The notes: generated by a model not told the origin, from the letters alone. A stretch of 42,381 nucleotides of DNA from Candidatus Nanoarchaeia archaeon (GCA_041484255.1 JBGPHE010000002.1:1-42381), one strand, 5' to 3'; numbered from the stretch's first letter, positions 1-27,345 are shown. Numbers and translations: made by a program.

Positions 1-2994
1 ACGCCGAACGACAACATCACTGACGGCAACACCACCTGCAGCAACAACGTGACTATCACTGCGCAGCAGAATAACCCGCCCGTCATCGCGCAAGTCATCC
101 TCAACGCGACCAATGTCTCGAACAACACCAATCAGAACCTGACCGTCTTCATCATCAACGCGACGGACGCGGACAACAATGTCGTGCAGAACATCACCGA
201 TTGGCGGCTGAACAGGACCAGCATCGCGGTGCTGAACATGCCGTTCGAGACCAACACGAGCAGCCTGAACCTGGGCGCCATCCGCGACTACAGCACCTGG
301 AGCAACAACGGCACGTTGGGCAATGGTACCGCAGCTGATGCGCCGCGCTGGAACAACTCAGGCCAAGTAGGCGGAGCCTATATCTTTGACGGCATCGACG
401 ACTTCATCGAAGTCCCCCACCAGAGCAGCCTCACGTTCGACAGCGACTTCACCGCGACCGTCTGGCTGCGCCTGAACAAGTCGCAGGCGTCATTCGCGTT
501 CTCCAAGCGAGTCGGCGCTCCGACCTTCCAGCAATGGGACCTCGGAGTCGTCGACACGACCGACTGCACCAGCTCATTCGCCACTGCGGGAACCTCGTTC
601 TGCTTCCTCATCTGCAACGGCGGAGGAACGTGCAACGGCGCAGGAACCGCCAACGGCTACGCCGACAACCGGTTCCACTTCGTCACAGGGGTGCGCAGCG
701 GCACCACTTATAGCCTTTACGTGGACGGCGCGTTCGTTTCGTCGACCACCCGCGCGGGCGACATCAGCAACACGCGCGCATTTGTTATTGGTAATATCGG
801 CGATTTGTCCCCAACTGCAGGCTTTGCGTTCAATGGCACGATTGACGAAGCAATCATTTACAACCGCTCGCTCTCCGCCGCCCAGATCAATCAGCTGTAT
901 GTGGACGGCAACGCGAGCAGGCATTCAATGACGATTGTCCAGAACGAGCTGCTCGCAGGCCAGAACTGGAGCGTCTGCGCCACGCCGAACGATAACATCA
1001 GCGACGGCAACACGACGTGCAGCAACAACGTGACCATCACCTCTGTGCAGAACGTGAGCAACCGGCCGCCGACCATCGCGCAAGTCATCCTGAACACGAC
1101 CAATCCGCTGACGAACGACACGAACCAGAACCTGACGGTCTTCATCATCAACGCGACCGATGTGGACAATGACGTCGTGCAGAACATCACTGACTTCCGC
1201 CTGAACAACGGCACGGTGTTCAAGTCGGTGAACGTGCTGAACATGCCGTTCGAGACCAACCAGAGCGGTAACGTCACCAGCGGAGCCATCCGCGACTACG
1301 GCACGTACGGCAACAACGGCACGCTCGGCAATGGCGGCGCAGCCCAGGCACCAGTCTGGCTGCAGCGCGGCCAGGTCGGCGGGGCATACCAGTTCGACGG
1401 CTCGGACGACTTCATCGACGTCGCGAACAGCACATCCGTCGATTTCACCACGACCTCGCAGGTGAGCATCTCGCTGTGGATCAACCGCACCGGCGGCGGC
1501 ACCGTGCAGCACATCCTGGGCAAGCGCCTTGGCTGCACCGGCTCAGGCGTCCAGTACCAAATGGCCTTTGACACGTTTGACGGGCCGTTCGGCCTCTCCG
1601 CCTTCGCCGCGTCGACCGGCGAGAACCCGCCCGTCGGCCAATGGGTGCACATTGTCGCCACCTATGACGGCACGAACTCGCGTATCTATGTCAACGGCAC
1701 GCTCAATGCGAGCGCGACAGGCGTAGGCATCAACACACCTATCGCCACAGACCTGCGCATCGGTCAGGCGGGAACGTGCACACCGTTCACCGGCATCATC
1801 GACGAACTGCAGATCTGGAACCGCACGCTCTCGCAGCAGGAGGTATCGCAGCTCTATGCGGACGGTCAGACGCACATCCACCTCAGCGCCATCACCCCGC
1901 CGGAAACGGTCGCGGGCGAAGTCTGGCAGGCCTGCGCGACGCCGAACGACAACCAGACCGATGGCAACACGACGTGCAGCAACAACGTGACCATCAACGC
2001 GGTGCAGAACGCGAGCAATGTCGCGCCGGCAATCGCGCAGGTCATCCTGAACACGACGAATGTCGCGCTGAATGACACCAATCAGAACCTGACGACGTTC
2101 ATCATCAACGCGACGGACGCGGACAGCAACGCGGTGCAGAACATCACGGACTTCCGCAAGAACAACGTGAGCATCGCAGTCCTGAACCTGCCGTTCGAGA
2201 ACAACACGAACAACGTGAGCGCAGGCTACATCCATGACTACACGACGTTCCAGAACAACGCGACGCTGGGCAATGGCGTCGTCAGCCAGGCGCCGCGCTG
2301 GAACCAGTCCAGCAGGCTCGGCGGCATGTACGCGTTCGACGGCATCGACGACCTCACCACGGTCGCCGACGCGACCAGCCTGAAGCCGCTCAACAACATC
2401 TCTATCGAGATGTGGCTCAATCTGACCGGCCAGACCGGCGTGACTGTCGGCGGCGCGCCCGCAGGGCTGCAGTACATCTTGCACAAGCCGCGCGTCATCG
2501 GCAGCGGCTGCTTCGAAGGCTATACCATCCTCAAGACCGCCGCCGGAGCCCTTGCCATTGTCGCGACCGGCAGCGGCGGATGCGGAGAGCAGGGCTCCGC
2601 AGTCACCACGACCAACATCACAACCGGCGTCTGGTATCACGTGGTCAGCACGTTTGACGGCAAGACCTTGCGCATCTATCTGAATGGCACGCTCGAAGGA
2701 AGCGGCGCGCACGCGTTCGACCTCTCGTACACGAGCGCGCCGCTCGTCATCGGCCAGACCGCCGACTTCTTCGACGGCCGCTTCAACGGCACCATCAGCG
2801 AGGTGCGCATCTACAACCGCAACTTCTCGGACGCGCAGGTCGCGCAGCTCTACCAGGAAGGGCTCGTCAACAAGCGCCCGATGACGATTGTCCAGCCCGA
2901 GCTGCGCGCGGGCGAGGTCTGGCAGAACTGCGTCACGCCGAACGACAACCAGACCAACGGCAACATCACGTGCAGCAATAACGTCACCATCAGC
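1..2994 (+). repeat. Tandem ~960-1000-nt coding modules (Ig-like plus LamG), three complete copies plus the tail of a fourth at the window edge.
   Basis: The junction motif ACGCCGAACGA(C/T)AAC...GGCAACA(C/T)(C/G)ACGTGCAGCAA(C/T)AACGT occurs at 1, 982, 1939 and 2935, giving periods of 981, 957 and 996 nt. Each module restarts with (P)P.IAQVILN.TN...NQNLT.FIINATD.D. Confidence 0.8.
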
Positions 2995-5900
2995 GCGCAG
3001 CAGAACGTCACCACGTCCTGCCCCGTGACCATCAACGTGAGCACGACATTGACGCAGAACATCACGGTCACCGCCACTGCGCCGTGCGTCACCTTCGGCG
3101 CGAGCAACATCACTCTGGACTGCGCAGGATACACCATCTTCTATGACCCGGTGGGCGCGGGCACTGATGCCATCGTCGCGGAGAACCGCACGAACGTCAC
3201 CGTCAGGAACTGCGTAATCATTGACGCAAACACCGGCGGCTCCAGCGGCATCGGCATCAACTTCACGAGCGTCAATGACAGCGCAGTCATCAACACCAGC
3301 ATCCAGACCAACGGAACGGACAGCAACTACGGCATATTGATCACGAGCGACTCGAACAGGAACATCATCGCCAACAACACCATCCGCACGCAGGGCTCGG
3401 CCATTGACAACATCGGCATCCACCTCACCACACTGGTATCAGGCAACAACGTCACCGGCAACAACATCACGACGAACGGCACGAGCGGCAATATCGGCGT
3501 CCGCATGGTGACCTCGGCAAGCAACAATCTCGTGTCGTACAACAGTATCAGCACGCACGGCGATGCCTCGGGCAACTTCGGCGTTGCCGCGGTGAGCAGC
3601 TCTCCAGGCAACCGCATCATCAGCAACAGCATCACCACGAACGGCTCCTTCAACGCGGGAGGAATCTCGGTCTCGGGCACCGGCACAGGCAATGCCACCG
3701 TCGTGAACAACACCATCAGCACCGATGGAAGTTCTCTCGCGATCGGCATTAACTACGGCATCATCATGTCCGGAGGGTTCGGCAGCAACAACGTGTCTGG
3801 CAATAATATCAGCACCCATGGCGTGTCATCCGACTTCGGCATCGAGATCGACAGCGGAACCAACAGCAACGTGTTCGACTCCAACATCATCGCGACCGCG
3901 GGCAATGGCAGCCAGGCGCTGTTCATCTTCAGGTCGAACGACTCGGTCTTCACGAACACGGTCTTCGACAATCCGAGCGACTGGATGAATTCCAGCGCAA
4001 ATACCTTCAACAATCTGACGAACACCACGTTTAGGATGCCGAACGGCAGCATCCGCATGAACAGCCTTGTCCAGCTGAACGGCTCGCAGGACGTGACCAA
4101 GGCAAGATTGAACATCACGTTCAACCGCGCGTTCCTGAACAGCACGAACCTGTCGTTCCTGAACACGACTGCAGTCATCACGCTCAACGGCATCGGATTC
4201 TCCGCGCCCGTGCCGACCGTGGACTTCACGGACAGCGGCGTGTTCTCGACCTGTCCGGCAAGCGTGTGCGCCGTGGTGAGCTTCTCCGGCGGCGTGCTGG
4301 TGTACAATGTGACGCACTTCACCTCGTTCTCCTCGACCGAGGGCAATGTGAACATCACGCTCACAAAGACCGACTCGCCTGACCCGGTCAACGCGAGCGC
4401 CAACCTGAGCTACCAGATCACGGTCAATGTGACGTCTGACAGCCCTGCGAACATCACGCTGACCGACCAGTACCCTGCGCAGGTCATCTTCCTGACCGCG
4501 CAGCCGTCGCCCATCGGCGGAACGAACAACACATTCATCATCGGCAACCTGACGAACGGCACCAGCTTCGCGGTGAACATCACTGTGCTCGTGCTCAATG
4601 TCAGCAACGGCACGCTCATCAACAACACCGCGAACATCAGCTACCAGAACGCGACCAGCGCGCTCTTCGCGCTGAACGTGACCGAGAACACTACCGTCCT
4701 CAATCCGCCTGTGGTGAACAACACCAACATCACATCCTGCCCGGTCACCATCAACACGAGCACGACATTGACGCAGAATCTTGCGGCAAACCTGACCGCG
4801 GCCCAGTCGTGCATCACCTTCGGCGCGAACAACACCGCGCTGGACTGCAGCGGCTTCAGCCTCAACGGCAACCTGACCGGCAACGGCATCAACGCGACCA
4901 ACCGGCTGAACATCAGTATCAGGAACTGCGTCATCGAGAACTTCACCATGAACATCCTCCTGCAGGGGACGAACATGAGCACGGTCGCCAACAACACCGC
5001 GCGCAACTCGACTCAGCAGAGCATCGAGATCCAGTCGAGCTCGCACGACCGCGTCGAGAACAACACCGCCGCGAGCATCACGAACACCGGAATCAATGTG
5101 ACGACCGGCGTCAACAACACGCTGATGAACAACAACGGCACGTCGGTGTCCGGCGACGGCATTGACATCGACACGAACAGCGTCAACAACACGCTCATCA
5201 ACAACAACGGAACGAGCACATCACAGTACGGCATCCAGATTGCGTCCTCGTTCAACAACACGCTCATCGGCAACCGCGGAACCGCGACCGGCGGACAGGC
5301 TATCAGGCTCGCCCAGAGCAACGGGAACACGCTCGCAAACAGCACCTCGGCCGGCGCGTACGGCATCAGCATTATCACCAGCGACTACAACATCATCCTG
5401 GGCAACAACGCCACAGGCACGACGGCCGGGCTCTTCCTGGGCGATGCCAGCTCGGACTTCAACAACTTCACCGGCAACAGGATCGACGCGCCGTCAGCCG
5501 CGGCCGTGAGCATCGGGGCGAGCCAGAACAACACGTTCGTCAACAACTCGTTCGCGACGGACACCGCCACTGACGTGCAACTGTCGTCCGCGATCGGCAT
5601 CCGCGGCGCCGGAAACCTCTTCATCAACACCACGCTCCGCACCAACGCGACGTGGCTGTCCACCGACGCGAACAGCACCGGCAACAACTTCACGAACACC
5701 GTGTTCGTCAGCTTCAACGGCAGCATCCGCATCATTCCCACGGCGACGCTGCCGAACGCGACATCTCTCGACTTCCGCAAGCTGAACGTGTCGTTCAACC
5801 GCGCGTTCCTCAATGCAACTAATGCATCGTTCCTGAACCAGAGCGCGCAGATTGCGCTGCTCAACCCGACCAGCAGCCAGCCGACCGTGGACTTCACGGA

Positions 5901-8763
5901 CACGAACGCGTTCGTCATCTGTCCCGCAAGCATCTGCACGGTCGACAGCTTCACCGGCGGCACGCTCGTCTTCAACGTGACGCACTTCACGACCTACTCG
6001 TCGACCGCGGGCAACTCCAATCTCACGCTGACAAAGACTGATTCGCCTGACCCGGTCAACGCGAGCAGCCAGCTCAATTACACAATCACAGTAAACGTCA
6101 CGTCCGACAGCCCGAGCAACATCACGCTGACCGACCGGTATCCTGCGCAAGTCATCTTCCTCTCGGCGCAGCCGTCGCCCATCACAGGAACAAATGACAC
6201 GTTCATCATCGGCAACCTGACGAACGGCAGCTCGTTCAGCGCCAACATCAGCGTCTTCGTGCTCAACCTGACCAACGGCACGCTCATCAATAACACGGCG
6301 AACATCTCATTCCAGAACGCCTCAGGAGTTGTCTTCACCGCAAGCGTGACCGAGAACACAACTGTGCTCTCGCAAATCGTGCAGAATGCGACGTTCAACC
6401 TGAGCAATATCTCCGTCATCAAGACCGACGTTCCTGATCCGGTACAGAACGGCACGCAGCTTGTCTACATCATCAACGTGACGAGCAACGGCAACGGAAC
6501 CGCGTTCAATGTGACCGTCAATGATACTTACCCGTCGCAAGTCATCTTCAACAGCTCGCAGCCGTCTCCTGTACCTGGAACGAACAACACGTTCATCCTG
6601 GGCAACCTGACGCCGGGAACGAGCATCCTGCTGAACATCACGGTGAATGTGTCAGGAAGCGTCACGAACGGCACCGTCATCAACAACACCGTGAATGTCA
6701 CGTTCAATAACGAGACGAGCGCGCTGCTGAGCCGCATCGCGACTGCAAACACCACAGTGCAGAACGTGACCGTCAATGTCACGCCCATCTTCAACACCAG
6801 CACCATCTCGGTCACGAAGACTGACGCGCCCGACCCGGTTGAGAACGGCACGCAGCTGAATTACACGATTACGGTCACGAGCACCGGCAACGGCACGGCG
6901 TACAACACGACCGTGACCGAAACGTATCCGAGTGAAGTTATCTTCAACAGCGCTCAGCCGACGCCGAGTTCGGGCAACAACACGTTCATCCTCGGCAACT
7001 TGACGCCAGGCACGATTGTCGTGCTGAATATCACCGTCAATGTCTCGGCAGGCGTCATCAACGGCACCGTCATCAACAATACCGCAACGGTCGCGTTCCA
7101 GAACGAGACCAGCGCATCGCTGAGCGCGTTCGCGACCGCAAGCACGACTGTGCAGAACAGCACGCCGACTCCGACGCCGCCAACGCCGTCCAGCAGCGGC
7201 GGAAGCAGCGGTGGTGGAGGCGGCGGCGTCAGAAGAAATGACACGTCGCAGGGCGCACAGCCCGCGGCAGGCTGCGTCGAGCGCTGGGAGTGCGCGGACT
7301 GGAGCGCGTGTGCGAACAACAAGCAGGTGAGGACGTGCGCAGACGCGAACACGTGCAACACCGCCCAGTTCCTGCCCGCGACCGAACGGCCGTGCCCGCC
7401 GCAAGCGCCGCTGCCTGAAGCAGAACAGCCTGCGCAGCCAGGACAGGCGCAGCCGGGCGAACAGCCTGCGTTGCCTGAAGTAGGCGCGCCGCTGGGATTG
7501 AACGTGCCGCAGGAGCAGCCGACCGTGAGCCCGCTCCAGACAATTATCAACCTGTTCACGCCGTCGCTCTGGCTGCTGATCTTCATCCTGCTCGCAGTCG
7601 TCATCGCGACGTATTCATACATGCGCAACACGCACAGCGCGCCGAGCGTGCCAGGCTACACGCCGCGCACATATGTTCCGCCGCGGGCCGCAATCAAGCC
7701 GCCTGCGGCAAGCCCGCTCAAGCGCAGCCAGAAACAGTTCTATGGCGGACTGCGCGATTTGGACAAGGCATTGGACAAGCTGGACCAGGGCAAGCTGCCT
7801 GCGTCATTGAAGAAAGCAGTGCAGCCCAAGCCGGAAGTCCTGCCCGCGGTTGAGAAAGTGAAGAAATTGCCGTCCAAGCCCGCAGGACCGAGCGTGTTCG
7901 AGAAGATGTTCGAGTACGAAGCGCGCGAGAAGCAGCTCGCACCGGTGCCCGCACCGAAGCCAAAGCACGTCGACAAACCTGCGCGCGCAAAGAAGAGCAT
8001 CTTCGCAAAGCTGTTTGAGCAGAAGCCGCACAGCCACACCGCAAAGAACGCAGAAATGCCGAAGCCAGTGGTCGCTCCGAGGCCATTGCCGTCGTTCAAG
8101 CCTGCAACATTGCCGCCGATCAGAGTCGCGGAGCCGAAGCGCAGGCCGTTGCTCGGACAGAAGGCGTTCTACGGCAGACTGCGCGACCTCGACAAGCAGT
8201 TCGAGCAGCTTGACCGCGCAGCGCAGAAGCCCAAGCCGCGGCCCGCAGAGAAACCGCGCAGAATCGAGATCGAGCCGCTCGTGCTTCCGCCGCTGAAGCA
8301 GAAGCCGAAGAAGCCTGAAACGTTCTATCACAAGATGGACACGATGGACAAGGCGCTTGAGGCGCTCGAACAGGGCAAACTGCCCAAGAAGACTGAGAAG
8401 CGCATCCATCAGGAAGAAGAAAAGCTCCGCGTGCATCCTGAACCGCTGCAGTTGCCGAAACCCGAGCCGATTGTCGTGTGGAAGCCGAAGCGCGAGCAGA
8501 AAGAGCCTCCGCAAGCAAAGCCGAGCGCCGCTGAGCCGCTGCCGCCTCCGCCCGCTCCGAAGCCCGTGTTCAAACCCGCTCCTGAAAAGAAGGCTTCCGT
8601 CGTGAAACCGGTCGTGCTGGAGAGTCTGGCAGACATCAAGGCGAGGGCATTGGCAAGCGTGAAGGCGCCGGTCAGCGAGAGAGCGCGTTTCAAGGGCAAA
8701 TTGGACCGGATGGACGCGGCTCTGGACCGTCTGGATAAGAAACTCAAGAAGAGAAAGATATAA
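1..8763 (+). CDS. Giant surface protein, 5'-truncated by the window edge (>2,900 aa). Architecture: repeated LamG/ConA-like modules, two parallel beta-helix (PbH1/NosD-like) modules, DUF11-type repeats, a 6-Cys module, one TM helix, and a ~380-aa Lys/Pro-rich cytoplasmic tail.
   Basis: The frame is open from base 1. Bases 1-60 translate to TPNDNITDGNTTCSNNVTIT, the module-junction motif that recurs at 982, 1939 and 2935, so the ORF-track start at 49 is internal. LamG_3-like signatures are present (GGAYQFDGSDDFIDV ... IDELQIWNRTLSQQEVSQLY). Beta-helix turns read NNTIxTNG...GI. The DUF11 signature is TKTDSPDPVNAS...YPAQVIFLSAQPSP. The TM helix is LWLLIFILLAVVIATYSYM, and the stop is at 8761-8763. 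Confidence 0.85.
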   Translation, partial: TPNDNITDGNTTCSNNVTITAQQNNPPVIAQVILNATNVSNNTNQNLTVFIINATDADNNVVQNITDWRLNRTSIAVLNMPFETNTSSLNLGAIRDYSTWSNNGTLGNGTAADAPRWNNSGQVGGAYIFDGIDDFIEVPHQSSLTFDSDFTATVWLRLNKSQASFAFSKRVGAPTFQQWDLGVVDTTDCTSSFATAGTSFCFLICNGGGTCNGAGTANGYADNRFHFVTGVRSGTTYSLYVDGAFVSSTTRAGDISNTRAFVIGNIGDLSPTAGFAFNGTIDEAIIYNRSLSAAQINQLYVDGNASRHSMTIVQNELLAGQNWSVCATPNDNISDGNTTCSNNVTITSVQNVSNRPPTIAQVILNTTNPLTNDTNQNLTVFIINATDVDNDVVQNITDFRLNNGTVFKSVNVLNMPFETNQSGNVTSGAIRDYGTYGNNGTLGNGGAAQAPVWLQRGQVGGAYQFDGSDDFIDVANSTSVDFTTTSQVSISLWINRTGGGTVQHILGKRLGCTGSGVQYQMAFDTFDGPFGLSAFAASTGENPPVGQWVHIVATYDGTNSRIYVNGTLNASATGVGINTPIATDLRIGQAGTCTPFTGIIDELQIWNRTLSQQEVSQLYADGQTHIHLSAITPPETVAGEVWQACATPNDNQTDGNTTCSNNVTINAVQNASNVAPAIAQVILNTTNVALNDTNQNLTTFIINATDADSNAVQNITDFRKNNVSIAVLNLPFENNTNNVSAGYIHDYTTFQNNATLGNGVVSQAPRWNQSSRLGGMYAFDGIDDLTTVADATSLKPLNNISIEMWLNLTGQTGVTVGGAPAGLQYILHKPRVIGSGCFEGYTILKTAAGALAIVATGSGGCGEQGSAVTTTNITTGVWYHVVSTFDGKTLRIYLNGTLEGSGAHAFDLSYTSAPLVIGQTADFFDGRFNGTISEVRIYNRNFSDAQVAQLYQEGLVNKRPMTIVQPELRAGEVWQNCVTPNDNQTNGNITCSNNVTISAQQNVTTSCPVTINVSTTLTQNITVTATAPCVTFGASNITLDCAGYTIFYDPVGAGTDAIVAENRTNVTVRNCVIIDANTGGSSGIGINFTSVNDSAVINTSIQTNGTDSNYGILITSDSNRNIIANNTIRTQGSAIDNIGIHLTTLVSGNNVTGNNITTNGTSGNIGVRMVTSASNNLVSYNSISTHGDASGNFGVAAVSSSPGNRIISNSITTNGSFNAGGISVSGTGTGNATVVNNTISTDGSSLAIGINYGIIMSGGFGSNNVSGNNISTHGVSSDFGIEIDSGTNSNVFDSNIIATAGNGSQALFIFRSNDSVFTNTVFDNPSDWMNSSANTFNNLTNTTFRMPNGSIRMNSLVQLNGSQDVTKARLNITFNRAFLNSTNLSFLNTTAVITLNGIGFSAPVPTVDFTDSGVFSTCPASVCAVVSFSGGVLVYNVTHFTSFSSTEGNVNITLTKTDSPDPVNASANLSYQITVNVTSDSPANITLTDQYPAQVIFLTAQPSPIGGTNNTFIIGNLTNGTSFAVNITVLVLNVSNGTLINNTANISYQNATSALFALNVTENTTVLNPPVVNNTNITSCPVTINTSTTLTQNLAANLTAAQSCITFGANNTALDCSGFSLNGNLTGNGINATNRLNISIRNCVIENFTMNILLQGTNMSTVANNTARNSTQQSIEIQSSSHDRVENNTAASITNTGINVTTGVNNTLMNNNGTSVSGDGIDIDTNSVNNTLINNNGTSTSQYGIQIASSFNNTLIGNRGTATGGQAIRLAQSNGNTLANSTSAGAYGISIITSDYNIILGNNATGTTAGLFLGDASSDFNNFTGNRIDAPSAAAVSIGASQNNTFVNNSFATDTATDVQLSSAIGIRGAGNLFINTTLRTNATWLSTDANSTGNNFTNTVFVSFNGSIRIIPTATLPNATSLDFRKLNVSFNRAFLNATNASFLNQSAQIALLNPTSSQPTVDFTDTNAFVICPASICTVDSFTGGTLVFNVTHFTTYSSTAGNSNLTLTKTDSPDPVNASSQLNYTITVNVTSDSPSNITLTDRYPAQVIFLSAQPSPITGTNDTFIIGNLTNGSSFSANISVFVLNLTNGTLINNTANISFQNASGVVFTASVTENTTVLSQIVQNATFNLSNISVIKTDVPDPVQNGTQLVYIINVTSNGNGTAFNVTVNDTYPSQVIFNSSQPSPVPGTNNTFILGNLTPGTSILLNITVNVSGSVTNGTVINNTVNVTFNNETSALLSRIATANTTVQNVTVNVTPIFNTSTISVTKTDAPDPVENGTQLNYTITVTSTGNGTAYNTTVTETYPSEVIFNSAQPTPSSGNNTFILGNLTPGTIVVLNITVNVSAGVINGTVINNTATVAFQNETSASLSAFATASTTVQNSTPTPTPPTPSSSGGSSGGGGGGVRRNDTSQGAQPAAGCVERWECADWSACANNKQVRTCADANTCNTAQFLPATERPCPPQAPLPEAEQPAQPGQAQPGEQPALPEVGAPLGLNVPQEQPTVSPLQTIINLFTPSLWLLIFILLAVVIATYSYMRNTHSAPSVPGYTPRTYVPPRAAIKPPAASPLKRSQKQFYGGLRDLDKALDKLDQGKLPASLKKAVQPKPEVLPAVEKVKKLPSKPAGPSVFEKMFEYEAREKQLAPVPAPKPKHVDKPARAKKSIFAKLFEQKPHSHTAKNAEMPKPVVAPRPLPSFKPATLPPIRVAEPKRRPLLGQKAFYGRLRDLDKQFEQLDRAAQKPKPRPAEKPRRIEIEPLVLPPLKQKPKKPETFYHKMDTMDKALEALEQGKLPKKTEKRIHQEEEKLRVHPEPLQLPKPEPIVVWKPKREQKEPPQAKPSAAEPLPPPPAPKPVFKPAPEKKASVVKPVVLESLADIKARALASVKAPVSERARFKGKLDRMDAALDRLDKKLKKRKI
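3019..6372 (+). repeat. Internal duplication of a ~1.7-kb supermodule (beta-helix, then beta-sandwich, then DUF11).
   Basis: CPVTINVSTTLTQNI at 3019 and CPVTINTSTTLTQNL at 4738 start two colinear copies. Both continue with ...NxTFNRAFLNxTNxSFLN...PTVDFTDxxxFxxCPASxCxVxSFxGGxLVxNVTHFTxxSST.GN.NxTLTKTDSPDPVNAS. Confidence 0.75.
6400..7150 (+). repeat. Two further DUF11-type repeats (~390 nt each).
   Basis: ISVIKTDVPDPVQNGTQL...YPSQVIFNSSQPSP begins near 6410. ISVTKTDAPDPVENGTQL...YPSEVIFNSAQPTP begins near 6806. Confidence 0.75.
7561..7623 (+). other. Single C-terminal transmembrane helix of giant protein 1.
   Basis: PSLWLLIFILLAVVIATYSYM is followed by RNTH and a Lys/Pro/Glu-rich sequence. 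Asn/Thr-rich composition stops abruptly here. Confidence 0.75.
7735..8750 (+). repeat. Four dispersed copies of a ~20-aa amphipathic motif in the cytoplasmic tail.
   Basis: The copies are FYGGLRDLDKALDKLDQGKLP (~7735-7800), FYGRLRDLDKQFEQLDRAAQKP (~8161-8230), FYHKMDTMDKALEALEQGKLP (~8321-8386) and FKGKLDRMDAALDRLDKKLKK (~8686-8750). Confidence 0.8.
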
Positions 8764-8822: not shown

Positions 8823-11800
8823 GTGACACGAAAAGGTGTGCTTGAAGAGAAAGCACTGATAGCTATCCTCCTACTTGCAGGTCTCCTCGGCGTCGGCGTG
8901 ATGCTCTGGGGCACCGGCATTCTTCATGCGCCGAGCGGCGATGCCACGGGCGCTGCCGTCGCGGGCGCGAATATGCCGCCCGTCTGGACGCCCGAGACGA
9001 CCAAGTATGTTATCGCCAAGAATCAGCAGTTCACGCTCGCGCTTCCGGCGGTCTTCAGCGACCCTGAAGGCGAGCCGCTCACGTTCATCGCCACGCAGAC
9101 CGAGAATCTCGACGTGCAGGTGAGCAACGACATCCTCACCATCACCCCCGAACCCGGCTTTGCGGGCGAGCGCGTCGTGACGGTCATCGCTTCCGACGGA
9201 ACGCAGGTGACGAGCAAGCGCCTCAATATCGAAGTCGGCGACGGCCAGACGACGCCTGAGCAAGTCGCGCCGCAGCCCGAAGCGCCCGTATCTTCCGGAG
9301 AAGCAGCCCCTGCAGAGCGCACGCTCGAAAAGGTCGAGGCCAGCGTCGAACAGGCCGTCTTGCAGCAGCCCGAAGTCCAAGTCATCGTTATTCTCAAGCA
9401 GCCTGCTGCCGCCTTCGCCGCAGCGGCGGACAACACCAAGCAGGAGACGCTCGACGACCAGAAGGCGCGCGTCGACGAGGCGCAGAGCGCGATCGAGCAG
9501 TCCATCAGCGCAGAGACGCCTGCAGCAACGGGCGCAATCACCGGCGCAGCGGTTGAAGACGGCAATAATGACATCGAAATCACGCGCTCGTACGACACCA
9601 TCAACGCAATCGCGGTCAATCTCACGCAGGCAGGACTGGAACAGCTCAGGAACGACCCGAATGTCGAGCAAATCCTGCTTGACCGCACGTTTAGCATCCA
9701 GCTCGCGCAGAGCGTTCCGCTCATCGATGCGGACGACGTCTGGAACCGCACGGCAGGCAGCGTCAATGTCACCGGCCAGGGCGAAAGCATCTGCGTCCTC
9801 GACACCGGCATCGACTTCAACCATTCCGCGTTCACGAACAAGATTGTCGGCGGCTACGACTATGTCAACAACGACAATTCGCCGCAGGACGACGCAAGCA
9901 ACAGCCACGGCACGCACGTCTCGGGCATCGCGGCAGGCAACAGCAGCTCAGTCAAGGGTGTCGCCCCTGACGCGCGCATCGTTCCAATCAAGGTCTGTAA
10001 TGGCGCAAACAGCTGCACCGGCTCGGCGATTCTCGCAGGCATCGACTACTGCAACAACAATTCAGTCGTCTACAACATCGACGCAATCTCGATGAGCCTT
10101 GGCGACAACGGCCAATACAACTCCACGACCTGCCCGACTGCATTCGAGTCCGCGTTCGCGACCTCGGCCAGCCTGGGCATCATCCCCGTTGCCGCATCGG
10201 GCAACAACGGCAACACTGGCGGAGTGAGCTACCCGTCCTGCTCGTCTTATGCCATCAGCGTCGGTTCGTCCAGCAAGGCAGACGCACTCGACAGCTTCTC
10301 GAACCGCGGCGGAGACCGCTTTGACGTGCTCGCGCCCGGCCACAGCATTGTTTCGTCGATTGTCGGCGGCAGCACCGGCTCGTTGACCGGCACGTCGATG
10401 GCCACGCCGCACGTCTCGGGCGCCATCGCGCTCATCCAGCAGTCGCAGAAGTCGCAGGGCAAGTCACCGCTGTCCGTCGAAGAGATGCGGCAGCTGTTCA
10501 AGGACACCGGCGTTGCCGTGAGCGGCCTGCCGCGCATCGACGTCCTTGCCGCACTCGTCCAGCTGGACCAGAACATCACGCTCAATATCTCGGACAATTC
10601 GGTCACGAACAGGACGCCGCCGAGCGCAAAGGTCAAGTTCGCGTCGGCAACCGATTTGAGCCAATTCGTCGACTGCGCGCAGGTGCAGTACAATTTTGTC
10701 TCCATCGATTCCGACCGCTGCCCGCAGTACAACAAGAGCGCGCACATCACGTTCTCCGGCCTGCCCGGCGTTGCCGCGACGCCGTTGCTCGACGGCGAGC
10801 CGTGCGATTCCTCCATCTGCACGAACACCGTATTCAGCGGAGGCGTGCTGGACTTCGACGTCACGGGCTTCAGCAATTACAGCAGCAACAGCACGTTCAC
10901 GACATCGACGCCGTGCGCCACCTGCGACCTGTGCACGGTCTGCGCGGCGGTCGCGGGAACGACCTGCACGCCGTTGACAGACATTGTCGCGACCACGGGC
11001 TCGAACTGCATCAACGTCACCGCAAACAATGTAGTGATCGACTGCGCGGGAGCCACCATCACAACGACAAGCTCCAACTCCGCAGGAGTCCTCATCAACG
11101 GCACCCGCAACAATGTGTCGGTCAGGAACTGCATCTTCAACATGTCCGCGCTCGGCATCTCCACAAGCACTTCGCAGCCGCTGGGGGCGGTGCAGAACGG
11201 CACCATCGCGAACAACGTGTTCAACATCGCCAATACCGGAACTGCGTACGCCATCAGCGTGTATTTCAACGGGACGAACATCACCGGAAACGTCATCACC
11301 AATAACGGCACCGGCGGTGGGTCGGTCATCGGAATATTTATCGAACCGCCCATTTACAACGACACCGCGAACAATGTCACAACCATCTCGGACGTGCACA
11401 TCGAGTACAACAACATCTCGATTGGCTCAGACCTCTTCCCGAGCGAGGGCATTACCCTTGCAGGGCAGGGCAGCGCGAACATCACCGGGTATGTGCGCAA
11501 CACTCGCGACATGGTCATCAACAATAACAAGATTGTCCTGCGGGGCCCGAACTCCGGGAACACCATCCAGCTCGGCATGCAGATCCAGGGCATCAACGGC
11601 ACGATGAACCTGACGAACAACACCATCGATATGAACGGTACGGGCAACTTCACGTTCGCGTTCGAATCGGCGGATTCGCAGTCCATGCGCGTCGACGGGC
11701 TGGTGCTCAACCTCACGCAGGACCAGACCGCGAACTGGTTCTACTCGTCGTTCTCCTCGTCATTGGGACAGTCGCTCGTCGTGTCGAACATCGTGTTCAA

Positions 11801-14800
11801 TGACATCAACGGCAGCATAGCCTATCCCGGGCCGATCACGCCGAACACGGCAGTGATCACGCGCCAAATCAACAGGACGGACGTCAACATCACCTTCAAC
11901 CACGCGTTCGCGAACACCACGATGTTCCCGTTCCTCAGCACGACCGCGAACGTCACCCTGCGCGGCCTGCCGTTCACGCTTCCCAAGATCCTGCGCTCGA
12001 CCAATGAGGTCAATTACGTCGACTGCGGCGCGACCTGCTCGCAGAAGCAGTACTTCAACGGCACATTGATGTTCCGCGTCAGCGCGTTCACCTCCTACAT
12101 CGCGAACGAGAGCGGCGTCGAGCTGTCCAAGAACGACTCGGTCGACCCGGTCAATGTCAGCAATACCATGACGTACACCATCCTCATCAACGCCTCGGCG
12201 AACGCGAGCAATGTCACGCTCACGGACACGCTGCCGCGCAAGGTCACGTTCATCAGCGCGCAGCCGAGCCCGCTGTCGGGAACGACCGACACGTTCATCG
12301 TCGGCAACCTGACAAACGGCACCGAGTTCCGCGTCAACATCACCGTGCGCATCGGCCTGTTCAGGAACGGCACCGTCATCAACAACACGGCGAACATCAC
12401 GTTCCAGAACCAGACCGGCGCGTTCCTCACCCTGAACGTTTCTGAAAACACCACGGTCCTCGGGCTTGTCGTCGCGTCCTGCCCGGTCAAGATCAACGGC
12501 AGCGTCGTGCTGGACCGCAACCTGCAGTCGAACGACACGTGCATCACCTTCGGCAACAGCAGCATCGACCTGGACTGCGACGGGTTCTCGCTCACGTACG
12601 GCATCAACGGCCTGCTGAACGACACGATGGCGGTCAATGTCACGAATTCGACGAACTCCAGCATCGTCAACTGCGTCATGATCAAGGGCAACGTGAGCGG
12701 ATTCCGCACCTACGGCGTCGGCGTCATCACGTCGCCCCGCCTGCGCATCGAGAACAACACCATCGCGACCAATGGCTCGGGCAGCGACGACGGCATCCAC
12801 ATCAGCGACGCCGGCGGAACCAACCCTGGCGGCACCATCAGGCTGGTCACGAACCCGAACAACATCTACGCGCCCAGCTGCGTCGCCAACGCGCCCGGCG
12901 TGAGCTACTGCAGCGTCCTCTATGTGAACGACTTCAACGACCGCGGAACAAAGTTCCCGCTCGGCTTTGGCCGCGGCGGCTGCCAGGTCAGGCACAAGGG
13001 CTACCACTTCAACACCGTGCTTCAGTTCAACCTCTCCGTGCTTCCCACGAGCGGCGCGATGGCAGGCATCGGCGGCGAGTTCGGCGGATGCGCGCTGAAC
13101 GGCGTCGAGATCTGGCACGTGTACGTCAACAACAACTGCCGCCAGTACAAGAGCGTGAAGTTCGGCAGCACGCCGTTCGTCATCGGCGAGAACAACCTCA
13201 CTTGCTACATGACCGGCATCGGCGCGGGCAACTGGCGCGGCTTCGGCTTGGACGCGTTCTCGTACGACCTTCCGCCGTCGAATGCCAGCGGCACCACCAA
13301 CGTCACCGTCAAGGGCAACAGCATCATCGCAAGCTCGGGCAACGACACCAACGGCGTCTTCCTGGACGCGGACAACTCCACCATTACCAATAACACCATC
13401 GTCGCGACGGGCAACAGCCTCGATGACGGCATTGAGACCATCGGCGGCAACGCGGTCATCACCGGCAACGTCATCCTGACGCGCGCGGTCAACCAGAGCC
13501 ACGCGCTCTTCCTCAGCGGCGGAAACAACACCCTCATCGCGAACAACACGCTGAGCGCGAACACGACCGGCAGCGCGGCGCTCTTCATGGGCGGCAGCGT
13601 GACCAACTCGACCGTGCAGAACAACACCCTCGCGTCCAACGGAACGGGAACGAGCGGCATCTACCTGTCCTCGTCCACCGGCCACCGGTTCATCAACAAC
13701 ACGTTCCTGAATACCACTGGCGCGGCAGTCTATGCTGAGCTTTCCCTGAGCAATGTCTTCAGCGCAAGCACCATCCCCGCTGCTCCCATCACCTCGCTGC
13801 TCATCCTGGAAAACGACGGCTCCATCAACTACACCCAGCAGCTCAGCCTGTTCACCCCCGTCAACCTGTCGCAGGTCGTGAACATCAGCTACAACAGCAC
13901 GTTCGTGAACACCTCCGACGCGGCAGGCAGCCAGCTGAACGCCTCGGCATTGCTGAGCTTCTTCGGCATCCTCGACCTTGACGCAGACCCGGTGATCGAC
14001 GCAGGTGATAACGGCTCGTTCGCGCTCTGCCAGGGGCCGCGCTGCGCCAACAGGAACTTCGACCCCGGCAATTCAGTCATGACCTACAATGTCCAGTCGT
14101 TCACCACGTACTCGACCAAGCCCGTGCAGGCGTGCGGCGTCCTGGACTATGCCGCCGAGAACGACACCTCGCTGAACATCGTCCTCACCAGGAACGTGAC
14201 GTCCAACGACACCTGCTTCCAGGTCTTCGCGTCCAACTTCACGCTGGACTGCCAGGGCAACACCATCCTCTACGGCGCCCAGGGAACGGGCGCGGGCATC
14301 GCCGTCGGAAACGCCAGCAATATCACCATCGAGAACTGCATCATCCGCGACATCAACGCCTCGGGCTCGGCCGGCTACGGCATCTACTTCAGCAACAGCA
14401 GCTACGGATTCGTCATCAACAACACCATCACGACGAACGGCACGTCCAGCAACCACGGCGTGCAGGTCGAGACGCTGGCGGGCTCCTCGGTCAACAATTT
14501 CACCATCGTGAACAACACCATCATGACGTTCGGCACGTCCGCCGCCAACAACGGCGTGAACATCGAGATCCAGTCGACGAACCTCAGCTCCAGCAGCAAC
14601 CACACCGTCATCGGCAACAACATCTCGACAAACGGCACGAGCGACAATGTCGGAATCAATATCTTCGCCAGCAACGGCAACATGAGCAACAATACCGTCT
14701 TCAACAACACCATCCGCACGCACGGCTCGACCGGAAACAACAACCACGGCGTCTATCTGCGCGAGGCCACCGGCGCGCTCATCGACAGCACGGTCGCGTA

Positions 14801-17800
14801 CAACAACATCATCACCAACGGCTCGAGCCAGAATAACGGCGTCTTCGCAGACCCCGGCACTATTGGCTCCGGCGTGCTCAAAAACACGCTGGTCGCAAAC
14901 AACACCATCGTCGCGGGCGGAAGCGGCTTCTTTAACGTCGGCGTCGAGTTCATCGCGAACACCAGCACCATCGACAACAACCTCATCAATACCACGGGAG
15001 TGGCCGGCTTCGACTACGGCATCTACGTGAACGGCCTCCAATTGGGAAACATCCCTGCGTTCAACCTGGTCATCACGCGCAACAACATCTCGACCACGGA
15101 CCGCTCCGGAGGCGGCGCCAACAGCCAGAACTTCGGCATTCTGGTGAACAACAACATCCGCAACAGCTATGTCATCGGCAACACCATCACGACCAACGGC
15201 TCCGGCGGCGTCAATATCGGCATCTCGCTGGACGACGACGTCTACAACACCACCGTCGAGAACAACACCGTGGTCACCGGCGGCAAGTATGGCTCCAACT
15301 ACGGCATCGCGCTGCTGTCCGACAGCGCGTTCGACGGCGCGGTCATCGACAACAACGTCACGAACAACACCGTCAACACCACCGGCGACTCCCTGAACAT
15401 CGGCCTCTTCCTGTTCGCGCCGCTGCCGAACGCGAACGTCGTGCAGAACAACCGGCTCCGCATCAACACCGTGCACGCGCGCGGCAACAGCACCAAGGAG
15501 TTCGGCGCGATGCTGTCCGGCAGGGTCTTCTACAACAACCTCACGAACAACCAGCTCATCTCGAACGGCACCGACAACAACGATGGCGTCTTCATCAACA
15601 CGAGCGGCGGCTTTGCCGCGACGGACGACATCATTGAGAACAACAACATCAGCACCTGGGGTAACGGCAGCAGCAACGTCGGCGTCCATCTGACGGATGG
15701 CGTGTCCCAGCACAATATCACCAACAACACCATCGTGACGCACGGCATCGACACCAACCACGGCGTCTTTGTCCAGCTGTCCTCGCCCCGCAACCTCATC
15801 GCGCGCAACAACATCACGATGGCAACGTTCGGCGCGAACAACAGCGGCGTCGATATCTCCGGCAGCACCACGAACATCGTGCGCGACAACCTCATCCGCA
15901 CCAACAACACGCCGTTCGACAACGGCATCCTGCTCACGACCTCGGCGAACAATAACAACGTGAGCAACAACACCATCGTTACGAACGGCACCGTTATCAA
16001 GGTCGTCTCGAGCCAGAGCAACCTCATCAAGGACCAGAACGCGACCACGGTCGCAGGAGGCGGCGTGGTGCTCACGACCGCGACGCTGAACAACTTCACG
16101 GACGACATCATCGCGAGCGACACCGGCATCGGGCTGGAGTTCTCGAACGGCACGTCGAGCGGCACCTTCTTCAGCGGATTCGAGGGCGGAACGCTCTCGC
16201 CGTTAACCACCAGCGGCAACAATGTCTGGGCGATCAACAACACCGACGTCTTCCAGGGCAGCTTCAGCGCGCAGTCGGGCGACATCAACGACTCGCAGAG
16301 CGCGGTGCTCACGCTGGCGCTCTCCGCGGGAGCGGGAACGGTCAGCTTCGCGCGCAAGGTCGAGTCTGAGTCGGGCTTTGACTTCCTGACGTTCAGGATT
16401 GACGGAGTGACGCAGCAGACCTGGTCAGGCCTCCTGCCGTACGCCGTGTTCAACTTTTCGTTCACGAGCGCGAGCACGTTCACCTGGACGTATTCCAAGG
16501 ACAGCTCGGTCACCGTGCAGAACGACACCGCGTTCGTCGACAATATCAACATCTCGTTCGCGGGCGGCGGAGCGCAGAACAACACGTTCACGCGCACGCT
16601 CTTCTACGCCAACCAGACCTGGTTCGTGGTGGGCGCGGGCGACACGAACAACACCGTGCAGAACGTCACCTTTGTCGGCCAGAACGGCAGCATCAACTTC
16701 CCGCCACTCATCCACTTGGGCGAGAGCTCGAACGCGACCATCCAGCGCATGAACAACACGCTCAACCTGTCGTACGTCAACAGCTCGGCGCTGGCCCTGC
16801 CGTTCTTCAACAACACAGCCATCCTGCGCTTCAGCCAGACGCGCTTCATCGACCCGGTGCCGTTCCGCGACCCCGAGGACGATTTGTCGTTCGCGTACTG
16901 CAGGAACTCGACGCCCGGCCACTGCACCAAGCTCGCCTACGTGAACAACGAGTTCGTCATCAATGTCAGCGGCTTCACGTTCTATGCGCTCTCCGAGGGC
17001 CAGGTGAACCTCACCCTGAACAAGACCGACTCTCCTGACCCGGTGCCGGCGAGCAGCCAGCTCAATTACACGATTATCGTGAACAACAGCGGCACGAGCA
17101 CGGCGCTCAACCTGACGCTGCTGGAAATCTACCCGAACGAGGTCATCTTCCTTTCGGCGCAGCCGTCGCCCGAGCCGGGAACGAACAACACGTTCTTCCT
17201 GGGCAACTTCTCGCCCGACAGCCAGATCCAGCTCAACATCACCGTGTTCGTGCGCAACATCACCGCAGACTCGGTCATCAACAACACCGTCAATGCCACG
17301 TTCCTGAACCAGAGCAACGCGACCATCCACGCGAACGTGACCGAAAGCACCACCGTCCTGAACCCCGCGGTGCTGAACATGAGCACCGTCTCCATCGTGA
17401 AGACCGACTCGCCTGACCCGGTCAACGCGAGCAGGAACCTCACGTATGTCATCAACGTGACAAGCACCGGCCCGGGCATCGCGCGCAATGTCTCGGTCAA
17501 TGACACCTATCCGAGCGACGTCATCTTCCTCACCGCGCAGCCGACGCCGATTGCCGGAACGAACAACACGTTCTTCCTCGGAAACATCACGAACGGCACG
17601 AGCGTCCTCATCAACATCACCGTGCTTGTGCGGAATACCAGCGACGGCCTGGTTCTTAACAACAGCGCGAACGTGACGTTCCACAACAACTCGAACTTCA
17701 CGTTCACGGCGGTGGCGACGGCGAACACGACCGTGAACAACCCGCCCGTCATCAACGGAAGCACCATCACCGTGACCAAGTCGAACTCGCCCGACCCGGT

Positions 17801-18722: not shown

Positions 18723-19034
18723 TCAGCCGAAGCGCTTTCTGATGTATTCCTGCTGCAAAAGCAGCGTGTAGATGAAGACTGCGATCACGACCAGCTCGAA
18801 CAGCGCGTTGATGTGGATCGGGATGTCGATGATTCCGATGGCACGCAGAATCGTCAGGAGTTCTTCAACGATGTACACGATGACCGCAAAGAAAAGCAAT
18901 TTCCACGGGAACAGGAAGACTCGCGCCTTGGGCTGGGTCTTGAACAGCGCGATAAAGAGCGCGACGACAACCGCGACCATCGCCAGGTTGTAGTACGGCG
19001 CGATCATGCCGAGCGCGACGCCGAAGTCGACCAT
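18723..19034 (-). CDS. Small (103 aa) three-TM membrane protein, paralog of the upstream gene.
   Basis: Three hydrophobic segments are visible. It shares the pattern FK..(5-7)..W..L.....VEE....L...GI with the adjacent gene. The start ATG overlaps the upstream stop (TAATG). Confidence 0.55.
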   Translation of the reverse strand: MVDFGVALGMIAPYYNLAMVAVVVALFIALFKTQPKARVFLFPWKLLFFAVIVYIVEELLTILRAIGIIDIPIHINALFELVVIAVFIYTLLLQQEYIRKRFG

Positions 19035-19336
19035 TAGTCAGCACCCCGCGTGACTTGAATCTGCACGATGAGTGCGGCGATGAGGAATGCGAGGATGATG
19101 CTGGGGATGACATGCGTGAGCCAGGGCGTGCTCCAGATGCCGAAGGTCTTCAGTGCGCCGACAAACTCCTCGACGCAGAAGAACACCAATGCCCAGAGCA
19201 GGTAGCGCCAGGCGCGGAGGCTCTTGCGCTCGCGGGCCTGCTTGAACATGCTGAACGCGATGCCGCCGGCGACGAACGAGAGGATGACTCCCGCGATCTG
19301 GCCGCTGCCGTAAATCCAGTCATACGTGGTCAGCAT
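19034..19336 (-). CDS. Small (100 aa) three-TM membrane protein, paralog of 18723-19034.
   Basis: I place the start at the internal ATG 19336 (MLTTYDWIYGSG...). The longer ORF-track N-terminus is Ser/Pro/Arg-rich and overlaps the divergent promoter region. A TATA-like GTTTAAATAG on the minus strand (19358-19368) lies ~27 nt upstream. Confidence 0.55.
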   Translation of the reverse strand: MLTTYDWIYGSGQIAGVILSFVAGGIAFSMFKQARERKSLRAWRYLLWALVFFCVEEFVGALKTFGIWSTPWLTHVIPSIILAFLIAALIVQIQVTRGAD

Positions 19337-19383
19337 ACCGCTCTTCGCGCCCAAGTCGCTATTTAAACTTTTCGGGACAGAAA

Positions 19384-19393
19384 GATTTATAGG
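19384..19393 (+). promoter_or_regulatory. TATA box (GATTTATAGG) for aglB. A second TATA (19358-19368) faces the minus-strand small membrane gene.
   Basis: The box centre is ~27 nt upstream of the ATG at 19416, matching the spacing seen at the other promoter calls listed here. Confidence 0.45.
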
Positions 19394-19415
19394 GGGCGTT
19401 TGCGCAGAAGCAGGC

Positions 19416-22679: not shown

Positions 22680-22681
22680 AA

Positions 22682-22755
22682 CGGGTCTGGCCAGATTTGA
22701 ACTGGCGACCTGTCGGTTAACAGCCGACCGCTCCACCGGGCTAAGCTACAGACCC
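22682..22755 (-). tRNA. tRNA-Asn (anticodon GTT), no encoded CCA.
   Basis: The minus-strand sequence GGGTCTGTAGCTTAGCCCGGTGGAGCGGTCGGCTGTTAACCGACAGGTCGCCAGTTCAAATCTGGCCAGACCC(G) folds as a cloverleaf. The acceptor is GGGTCTG/CAGACCC, the anticodon stem is GTCGG/CCGAC, the anticodon loop is CTGTTAA, and the T arm is GCCAG-TTCAAAT-CTGGC. Confidence 0.9.
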
Positions 22756-22812
22756 ACGTACCGAGAATAAGTCAAAGGTGCAGTTAAAAAGCTTTTGTTG
22801 CGCGCGGAGAAT

Positions 22813-23947: not shown

Positions 23948-24021
23948 TGGCCCAGCTCGGAGTTGAACCGAGGACCGCTCGATTATCAGTCGAGTGCTCC
24001 ACCTGGCTGAGCTACTGGGCC
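23948..24021 (-). tRNA. tRNA-Ile (anticodon GAT), no encoded CCA.
   Basis: The minus-strand sequence is GGCCCAGTAGCTCAGCCAGGTGGAGCACTCGACTGATAATCGAGCGGTCCTCGGTTCAACTCCGAGCTGGGCC(A). All four stems pair canonically and the anticodon loop is CTGATAA. Confidence 0.9.
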
Positions 24022-25609: not shown

Positions 25610-26062
25610 TCAGATCAGCTTTTTCTCGAGCTCGCCGAGCACGTGAATCGGAGTGACGGCTGCGCTCGGCTCGAAGCTGATGGCGGCCAAGCGCGCGCCC
25701 TTAAAGTGGTTGATAACCAGGTGGTCGTACAGGCGCTGCTGCAGCTGCAGGCAGTCGCTGTTATTGGCGAAGCGAAGCAGGAGGTAGAAGCGCCCTTCCT
25801 CGCGCGCCTTGATGTCCATGCTCATCTCGCCAGCCTCGGTAGGAATCGTGATGCCGTCGATGAATCCCTTGACTCCCGCGACCATCAGCTTCTGCTCGTT
25901 TTGAGAAGCGCGCTCATACCGCTCGCCCAAATCGAGCAGCGCCGTGCCGAAGGGCTTCTTGGCGCGCGTTGCTTTGCCGATATAGAGCGGGAGCTTCTCG
26001 TTCCTGAAGCATTCTCCGGTTACGTACAGCGTTTCGCGGTCCGTCGAGGGTTCGGGATTCAT
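25610..26062 (-). CDS. Hypothetical 150-aa soluble protein, translationally coupled to the upstream GGDEF gene.
   Basis: Its ATG at 26062 overlaps the TGA of the GGDEF gene (ATGA). I recognise no motif in the product. Composition is ordinary, unlike the antisense artefact ORFs. Confidence 0.55.
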   Translation of the reverse strand: MNPEPSTDRETLYVTGECFRNEKLPLYIGKATRAKKPFGTALLDLGERYERASQNEQKLMVAGVKGFIDGITIPTEAGEMSMDIKAREEGRFYLLLRFANNSDCLQLQQRLYDHLVINHFKGARLAAISFEPSAAVTPIHVLGELEKKLI

Positions 26063-27174: not shown

Positions 27175-27197
27175 ATCGACGATAATACCGTTTTGCC

Positions 27198-27207
27198 CTT
27201 TATAAAG
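27198..27207 (-). promoter_or_regulatory. TATA box (CTTTATAAAG) for the GGDEF operon.
   Basis: This palindromic TATA is centred ~29 nt upstream of the ATG at 27174. Confidence 0.45.
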
Positions 27208-27244
27208 CTTCTGGTTATTAACTACTAGAAGGTGACGAATAAAA

Positions 27245-27318: not shown

Positions 27319-27345
27319 AATAGTGTGAAAATGACTGCAGGTGCT

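Follow-up and report, generated by a model that had tools for sequence, protein, structure and literature searches.

Repeated amphipathic helices in the predicted cytoplasmic tails of giant archaeal surface proteins: a candidate docking motif of no named family

Giant surface proteins of small and symbiotic archaea are thought to mediate contact between cells, and to our knowledge almost nothing is known of how such proteins are linked to the cell interior. The SPEARE proteins of the Nanohaloarchaeota are very long chains that lie largely outside the cell, where they bear LamG/adhesion and serine protease domains; a membrane anchor near the C-terminus precedes a cytoplasmic region, the most conserved part of the protein, with a type III restriction-enzyme-like domain (Hamm et al. 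2019; PMC6642349). We analyzed a 42,381-nucleotide stretch of DNA from a Candidatus Nanoarchaeia archaeon (GCA_041484255.1 JBGPHE010000002.1:1-42381; hereafter the window, with positions counted from its first letter), the first 18.7 kb of which holds two giant genes on the + strand. Their products resemble the SPEARE proteins at the level of architecture: protein 1 has LamG, beta-helix and DUF11 domains, protein 2 has an S8 protease, and both have a C-terminal anchor. In contrast to the folded restriction-enzyme-like domain of the SPEARE proteins, the anchor here is followed by a disordered Pro/Lys-rich tail that has short helical motifs but lacks any Pfam domain; sub-threshold noise aside, no type III restriction-enzyme-like domain was found in either tail at a Pfam E-value of ≤10. 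One of these motifs, motif A, is repeated four times in the tail of protein 1 and appears, by its sequence, to be an amphipathic helical binding motif in a disordered tail that belongs to no named family. Since relatives keep it, motif A is real, and it is probably a protein-binding site. We favor, tentatively, the view that it is a family-specific, multivalent helix that docks onto a separate putative partner.

Across 26 copies in 9 tails, the consensus of motif A reads [KR]-F-Y-x-K-L-D-x-[LI]-D-K-x-L-x-x-L-D-K and spans 16-18 residues. The tail of protein 1 (379 amino acids (aa); 7624..8760, + strand) is predicted to be disordered except for the motif helices. Within it, and on the same strand, copy 1 (QFYGGLRDLDKALDKLDQGKLPA) occupies 7735..7803, copy 2 (AFYGRLRDLDKQFEQLDRA) 8164..8220, copy 3 (TFYHKMDTMDKALEALEQGKLPK) 8320..8388 and copy 4, together with the polybasic C-terminus (RFKGKLDRMDAALDRLDKKLKKRKI), 8686..8760; the corresponding peptides of an earlier note on this DNA span 7738-7800, 8167-8232, 8323-8385 and 8689-8751, respectively. 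Each copy was found by a regular expression, by an independent hidden Markov model (HMM) and as a helix in an AlphaFold2 (AF2) prediction. The regular expression given in the earlier note matched exactly four times in protein 1 and nowhere else in the six frames, all five of its peptides, the fifth being from protein 2, were located exactly where it had placed them, and the tail, which it put at ~380 aa with Pro/Lys-rich linkers, contains 16% Pro and 22% Lys+Arg. As a guard against circularity, the independent HMM was built from 21 copies, all of which came from proteins of other organisms. On the full 6387-aa protein 1 it returned exactly four matches, namely the four copies, at 18.5-24.7 bits, and on the tail alone the same four at 22.7-29.1 bits, copy 1 scoring 24.7-29 bits. 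The next best match in a six-frame translation of the window reached 2.1 bits. The earlier note had asked whether shuffled sequence would yield the motif at comparable frequency; it does not, as 0 of 2000 composition-preserving shuffles of the protein 1 tail reached 10 bits, the maximum being 5.8. The independent-profile scores and the shuffles thus show that the copies are not due to chance. At the DNA level the four copies show a mean column identity of 62% and many synonymous differences, which argues that they are old and have been kept at the protein level, and are not the product of a recent DNA duplication.

We measured the extent of the family by running a profile of eight copies with HMMER against 1.84 billion representative proteins, using a cut-off of E ≤ 1e-3. 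Seven clusters were recovered: protein 1 itself (P0002), P0001 (longer form P0012, 4191 aa), P0003 (2568 aa), P0004 (6696 aa), P0007 (4708 aa), and P0005 and P0006, both of which are contig-end fragments. The clusters, or the fragments of them, share one build, in which an ectodomain of beta-helix, LamG and DUF11 domains is followed by a Cys-rich module, the motif I-D-L-F-x-A-x-L-W, a membrane segment and a tail. The motif is confined to the region after the C-terminal membrane segment in all clusters, and regular expressions for motif A and for two further tail motifs, B and C, all derived from the tails, gave 0 matches in more than 28,000 ectodomain residues. Overall the tails are ~24-37% identical, and the conserved islands in their alignment fall exactly at the motif copies; conservation in related genomes, on which the earlier note had made its claim depend, is therefore seen in the giant proteins of other assemblies. 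The number of copies ranges from 1 to 7 per tail, the main giants having 3-7 and their shorter co-encoded neighbors one degenerate terminal copy, and every multi-copy tail has at least three. Copy number and spacing vary while the linkers diverge, as is usual for binding motifs, linear or helical, that lie in disordered regions.

Two of the loci that encode relatives, L008 (P0003) and L010 (P0012), show synteny with the window: the giant gene(s) are followed by two small membrane proteins, STT3 and, further on, a helicase and a GGDEF protein. Of the two L008 giants, the first (3255 aa) carries a single, terminal copy (IDRSEKALERLDKTLRRMKKK) and the second, P0003, carries three, an arrangement that mirrors the 4+1 copies of the window in that a many-copy giant adjoins a one-copy giant. 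The locus of P0007 (L009) is not syntenic, yet this paralogue still carries motif copies, indicating that the motif follows the protein and not the neighborhood. The carriers are membrane-anchored giants with dense N-glycosylation that come from a few related, uncultured sediment archaea; the family is tiny, and by its distribution the motif is restricted to it. We considered whether the copies might have no specific function, being remnants of an internal duplication in a low-complexity tail that were kept by ancestry in a very narrow clade. Seven clusters, protein 1 included, from a few related sediment archaea would be expected under such an explanation, and since the loci are syntenic the lineages are close. 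We nevertheless give it little credence, as the motif positions are kept despite the low overall identity of the tails, the DNA copies differ at synonymous sites, P0007 has retained its copies outside the syntenic context, and a bias toward Asp over Glu, described below, is confined to the motif.

Other searches were narrower in their yield. A word-index protein search with the protein 1 tail returned one relative, P0001, and the same type of search with an alignment of the Cys-rich module, membrane segment and first motif returned no match, missing the family's own members as well. When that alignment was used to scan genomes, the Cys-rich module alone was found in 7 unrelated metagenome-assembled genomes (L001-L007; one Parcubacteria, six archaeal), sometimes in tandem, in proteins with short or no tails and without the motif; module and motif are thus separable. 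A metagenome scan with a degenerate DNA pattern found, besides 29 chance matches, only the contigs of P0003 and P0004, and is uninformative on absence, as the pattern coded two Leu as DTN and so excluded CTN codons. DNA of the window was found in more than 20 runs labeled 'sediment metagenome'; the tail of protein 1 is identical across contigs of four sediment runs, so that population variation is uninformative. In agreement with the earlier statement that no named family has this motif, neither the protein 1 nor the protein 2 tail had a significant Pfam match, the best being Ubiq_cyt_C_chap at 18.8 bits, under its 21.5-bit cut-off, with the CLZ leucine zipper at E 2.8, and a literature search found no description of motif A.

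The earlier note also proposed that the motif is conserved across both tails of the window. Protein 2 does end in a related helix (GIANTLKDTDKMLKELEKALKKQR, 18648..18719, + strand; peptide of the earlier note, 18651-18719), which we describe as a degenerate terminal copy with a basic end. By its sequence this helix is a marginal match: with the independent HMM it scored -0.4 bits when the whole protein was searched and 5.8 bits when the tail alone was, and 9 of 2000 tail shuffles did as well as the latter (p about 0.005). The real evidence for conservation accordingly comes from other genomes. Three observations back the helix. In BLASTP the last 53 aa of protein 2 matched the region around copy 2 of protein 1 at E 5e-5, the database being very small, with 44% over 57 columns of alignment; like the last copy in every relative, the helix is located at the very C-terminus and runs into a polybasic end; and an analogous one-copy giant is present in a syntenic locus. 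A word-index search with the C-terminal 206 aa of protein 2 returned no match, and hence no orthologues for comparing the terminal helix. The pattern L-x-x-L-x-x-x-L-K-K, which the earlier note had seen at the C-terminus of both proteins, is indeed there, but it is found at only 6 of the 9 C-termini, two of which (P0005 and P0012) belong to close relatives of each other. What all the C-termini share is instead a last motif copy that runs into a polybasic end.

Any function of the motif depends on which side of the membrane the tails occupy. The window holds the C-terminal 2920 codons of protein 1 (1..8763, + strand), whose frame 1 is open from base 1, the gene extending beyond the left edge; P0002 is the full-length protein in the public collection. 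Its Pfam domains are LamG, right-handed beta-helix/NosD and DUF11, followed by a Cys-rich module (GCVERWECADWSAC...RTCADANTCNT...C; 7270..7395, + strand), which belongs to no Pfam family, the juxtamembrane motif I-x-L-F-x-x-x-L-W with a single transmembrane (TM) helix (7534..7620, + strand; TM at 7567-7620), and the tail. Protein 2 (3299 aa; 8823..18722, + strand) has, in order, an N-terminal signal or anchor, an I9 propeptide and S8 subtilase, beta-helix/NosD, DUF11, a Cys-rich module (18225-18350), a TM helix (18456..18518, + strand) and a short tail. Both proteins therefore start with a hydrophobic signal or anchor and end with a Cys-rich module of the pattern CxExWxCxxWxxC...RxCxD...C, one TM helix and a basic tail. 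The I9 and S8 domains lie near the N-terminus of protein 2 (9770-10510, residues about 318-563), which would make one of the two neighboring giants a tethered protease. The juxtamembrane and membrane region is conserved family-wide as I-D-L-F-x-A-x-L-W ... L-T-x-A-Y, a conservation that hints at contacts within the membrane.

Full-length ectodomains contain 5.9-7.5 N-x-S/T sequons per 100 aa and 3-5% Lys+Arg, whereas the tails contain 0 sequons and 21-29% Lys+Arg. The net charge is about +44 for the protein 1 tail, +10 for the short protein 2 tail and +25 to +85 for the tails other than that of protein 2, and the number of membrane segments after the Cys-rich module in the giants of the family is 1 or 3, never 2. 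The lack of sequons, the high content of positive charge and the odd number of membrane segments place the tails in the cytoplasm, as the earlier note had assumed. In P0007 (L009 10001-24127) and in the protein encoded at L008 192-9959, three hydrophobic segments replace the single membrane segment, a change that would leave the tail on the same side. In their own right, the sequon numbers of the ectodomains are extreme (411 in full-length protein 1 and 189 in protein 2), and a gene for AglB/STT3 lies immediately downstream.

We next consider the anatomy of motif A. F1 occurs in 24 of the 26 copies and D9 likewise in 24, L12 in 21, L5 in 19, L15 in 18, D16 in 17 and Y2 in 16, and Lys or Arg occupies positions 4, 10 and 17 in 19-20. 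Positions 1, 5, 8, 12 and 15 are F, L, I, M or V in 18-24 of the 26 copies, in keeping with a hydrophobic heptad a/d pattern. Internal copies often extend into G-K-L-P-A, a helix stop, and terminal copies always run into the polybasic end. On a helical wheel Phe and Leu form one stripe with Asp 9, 13 and 16 directly beside it and the basic residues opposite; the hydrophobic moment is 0.37-0.66 and the net charge -2 to +2. The ratio of Asp to Glu is 69:28 in the motif core compared to 49:147 for the tail sequence outside the motif. A generic coiled coil does not usually show such a preference for Asp, which is typical of a recognition helix, and the pattern of retained residues shows selection on F1, L5, [LI]8, D9, L12, L15 and D16 together with the G-K-L-P helix stop.

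AF2 was given the membrane segment and tail of protein 1 with four relatives as the alignment; alignments comprised 4-5 sequences overall. Helices were predicted for the membrane segment, for copies 1-4 and for motif C, and all else was disordered. Over the motif helices the predicted local distance difference test (pLDDT) values, averaged in blocks of 10 residues, were ~66-88, and the predicted template modeling score (pTM) was 0.18; the P0006 tail gave the same picture with a pTM of 0.20. Low pTM values and helices set in disorder suggest that the motifs are pre-formed or inducible elements on a flexible chain and not parts of a folded domain. The amphipathic character that the earlier note had ascribed to the motif is likewise borne out by the AF2 helices at the four copies and the Leu/Phe stripe on the helical wheel. 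A helical bundle within one chain is unsupported by AF2 at these pTM values. Motif C (LESLADIKARALASV; 8617..8661, + strand; 5.5 bits, p about 0.002) is a short helix before the terminal copy and is kept in relatives as LP[ST]LQD[IV]KxxAL.

Under the docking hypothesis, each helix would display its Leu/Phe stripe, bordered on one side by the Asp stripe, and would insert into a groove of a partner located in the cytoplasm or at the membrane periphery. With several weak sites on the same flexible tail, binding would gain avidity, and both the partner and the giants could be clustered under the membrane, while the last copy, with its polybasic end, may sit near the anionic membrane surface. We favor docking on four grounds: about two thirds of the helix surface shows residue-specific conservation, Asp outnumbers Glu in the motif, the helix ends at a defined stop, and the motif stays while copy number and spacing float. 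Five findings weigh against this interpretation. Neither the 42-kb window nor the syntenic loci yielded an MIT domain, a FAT-like domain or another evident reader, and among the fetched loci L009 has no MIT domain either. With Leu at a and d, Asp at e and often Lys at g, the motif has a textbook zipper heptad, which favors self-association. The family is so small that its conservation statistics come from few independent lineages. The failure of AF2 to pack the helices is weak evidence, given alignments of 4-5 sequences. Lastly, there is the marginal match of the protein 2 helix.

The heptad brings in a close rival of docking, a tail-to-tail zipper in which motif A helices pair across molecules, protein 1 with protein 2 included, to build a submembrane lattice or patch with no separate partner. 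The heptad pattern fits both about equally. Core positions 1, 5, 8, 12 and 15, as well as 19 in terminal copies, are spaced d-a-d-a-d, and with Asp at e (9, 16) and Lys or Arg often at g (4, 11) classical g-e' salt bridges would be allowed. A many-copy giant stands beside a one-copy giant in two syntenic loci (window 4+1, L008 1+3), and the minimum of three copies in every multi-copy tail would also suit pairing. The best PDB profile matches were to designed coiled coils, with E-values of 0.008-0.4, the first being to the three-stranded Coil-Ser (PDB 1cos; KLQALEKKLEALEHG vs consensus KLDRLDKKLERLDKG), with which motif A shares Leu at a and d and charged flanks. These E-values are marginal, however, and reflect generic heptad composition, and motif A differs from Coil-Ser in its ~2.5 heptads per helix, fewer than the three or more expected where a coiled coil is stable, in its Asp in place of Glu, and in its conserved F-Y start and G-K-L-P stop. 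The near-invariance of F1, which is not swapped for other hydrophobics, and the Asp:Glu ratio likewise speak against a zipper, as does, weakly in view of the shallow alignments, the failure of AF2 to pack the helices within one chain. We give the zipper a somewhat lower probability than docking, to which it is a close rival.

An amphipathic helix next to a membrane may also serve as an anchor, the helices lying flat on the inner leaflet while polybasic linkers and the C-terminus staple the tail down, an arrangement that could stabilize or sense the anchoring of the ectodomain. The hydrophobic moment of motif A and the strongly positive tails, each ending in a polybasic cluster, would suit such a role, and the relatives carry motif B, KPG[LIF]FxR[IL]FA. 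The C-terminal helix of MinD has the sequence KGFLKRLFGG, and motif B of the relatives (KPGIFQRIFAKK) resembles this membrane-targeting element. Short cationic amphipathic helices of the MinD type bind membranes weakly, and affinity adds up with copy number, one MinD helix binding weakly and two copies better (PMC8155659). Whereas motif B and the polybasic end are thus similar to helices of the MinD/FtsA type, motif A has an Asp stripe directly beside its hydrophobic face, which, on a helix of near-neutral net charge, would be unfavorable on anionic lipids. In the window proteins motif B falls short of significance (in protein 1, 36% of shuffles score equally well), and an anchor leaves the invariant F1 and D9 unexplained. 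A membrane-surface anchor hence seems to us improbable as an account of motif A. Clear copies of motif B, such as KPGFFESLFARK and KPGFLARIFASSK, occur in the tails that follow three hydrophobic segments, and a 418-aa coiled-coil-rich protein encoded just upstream of P0007 (L009 8211-9467, - strand) starts with MFRFLKELFGK, a motif-B-like amphipathic segment. The PGF-CTERM/archaeosortase signal does not apply to this family, as the tails are 72-529 aa long with no PGF before the membrane segment, the sole PGF strings lying within motif B of two relatives.

The contig is archaeal, and the remainder of the window carries genes for the AglB/STT3 oligosaccharyltransferase (19326-21386, directly downstream of the giants), a Hel308-type helicase with archaeal domain 4 (24080-25609), an ATP-dependent DNA ligase (27346-29127, - strand), FtsZ (30289-31356) and ribosomal protein S15 (S13/S15 N-terminal domain). 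Alg14/Alg13-like and sugar-nucleotide epimerase/dehydratase genes lie on the same contig (35171-40392). Two genes of bacterial type on this archaeal contig, encoding a GGDEF diguanylate-cyclase domain protein (26059-27285, - strand) and a PlsX-like (FA_synthesis) protein (22813-23886, - strand), are both retained in L008 and L010. Five tRNA genes (Asn-GTT, Ile-GAT, Arg-GCG, Gln-TTG and Gln-CTG) occupy 22681-22756, 23948-24021, 27244-27319, 33696-33768 and 37064-37136. Convergent with the end of the second giant gene are genes for two paralogous proteins of ~100 aa (18723-19034 and 19034-19336, both - strand) with three membrane segments each and no Pfam family match. This pair is 69-83% identical to its counterparts in L008 (17704-18317) and L010 (12577-13190), neighboring genes being merely 31-39% identical between the window and the syntenic loci, and it is not present beside P0007 in L009. 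The two proteins are candidate membrane partners of the giants.

We finally compared motif A with helical motifs of known mode of action. The MIM1 helix of ESCRT-III proteins, a ligand of the Vps4 MIT domain, has the consensus (D/E)xxLxxRLxxL(K/R). It is a Leu-rich amphipathic C-terminal helix with an acidic start and a basic end that binds the groove between two MIT helices (PMC7240154). Terminal copies of motif A are alike in reading D-x-x-L-x-x-L-x-x-x-L-K-K at the extreme C-terminus, and differ in a Leu spacing of 4-7-11 as opposed to 4-8-11, in the multiple internal copies and in the lack of an MIT protein in the examined loci. The MIM1 consensus gave 0 matches in the 9 tails with their 26 copies, and also 0 when L/I/M and K/R were relaxed, and the carriers are no ESCRT-III proteins, being LamG, beta-helix, DUF11 and S8 surface proteins without a Snf7 match. 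The LD motifs of paxillin (LDxLLxxL) are Leu/Asp helices in a disordered region that dock weakly onto a helical-bundle domain and act as a multivalent scaffold at adhesion sites. Motif A likewise comprises several short Leu/Asp amphipathic helices set in disorder, its core reading L-D-x-L-D-x-x-L; it differs in belonging to the tail of a membrane protein and not to a eukaryotic soluble adaptor, and in having Asp where LD motifs have Leu at position 5. LDxLLxxL had 0 matches in the 9 tails, with no evidence of homology, whereas the core [LIVM]Dx[LIMF]Dxx[LIF]xx[LIV][DE] had 10 exact matches in the same tails. Since it fits neither consensus and its carriers are unrelated, motif A is a member of neither the MIM1 nor the LD family; the mode of action that we propose may, by analogy, be like that of MIM1 helices or LD motifs. 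Mimicry of the FtsZ C-terminal peptide was considered and rejected, as FtsZ of the window ends in EDSLGIELIN, unlike the motif.

A more far-reaching proposal is that the family represents a new form of submembrane coupling, in which multivalent F-Y-x-K-L-D-x-L-D helices would recruit or cluster a cytoplasmic factor, or zip SPEARE-like adhesins together, so that contact made by the ectodomain is transmitted inward mechanically or by signaling. We think this unlikely as it stands; if true, it would constitute a prokaryotic analogue of a eukaryotic adhesion-receptor tail with its adaptor, in an archaeon possibly living attached to other cells. The near-invariant F1 and D9 make a 17-residue peptide an easy handle for synthesis, for use as bait, for mutation and for modeling, and a partner, if one exists, would be a pointer to the intracellular machinery behind archaeal adhesion. 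Compared to the SPEARE proteins, a chassis of the same kind here bears a disordered tail with a multivalent helix motif in place of the enzyme domain.

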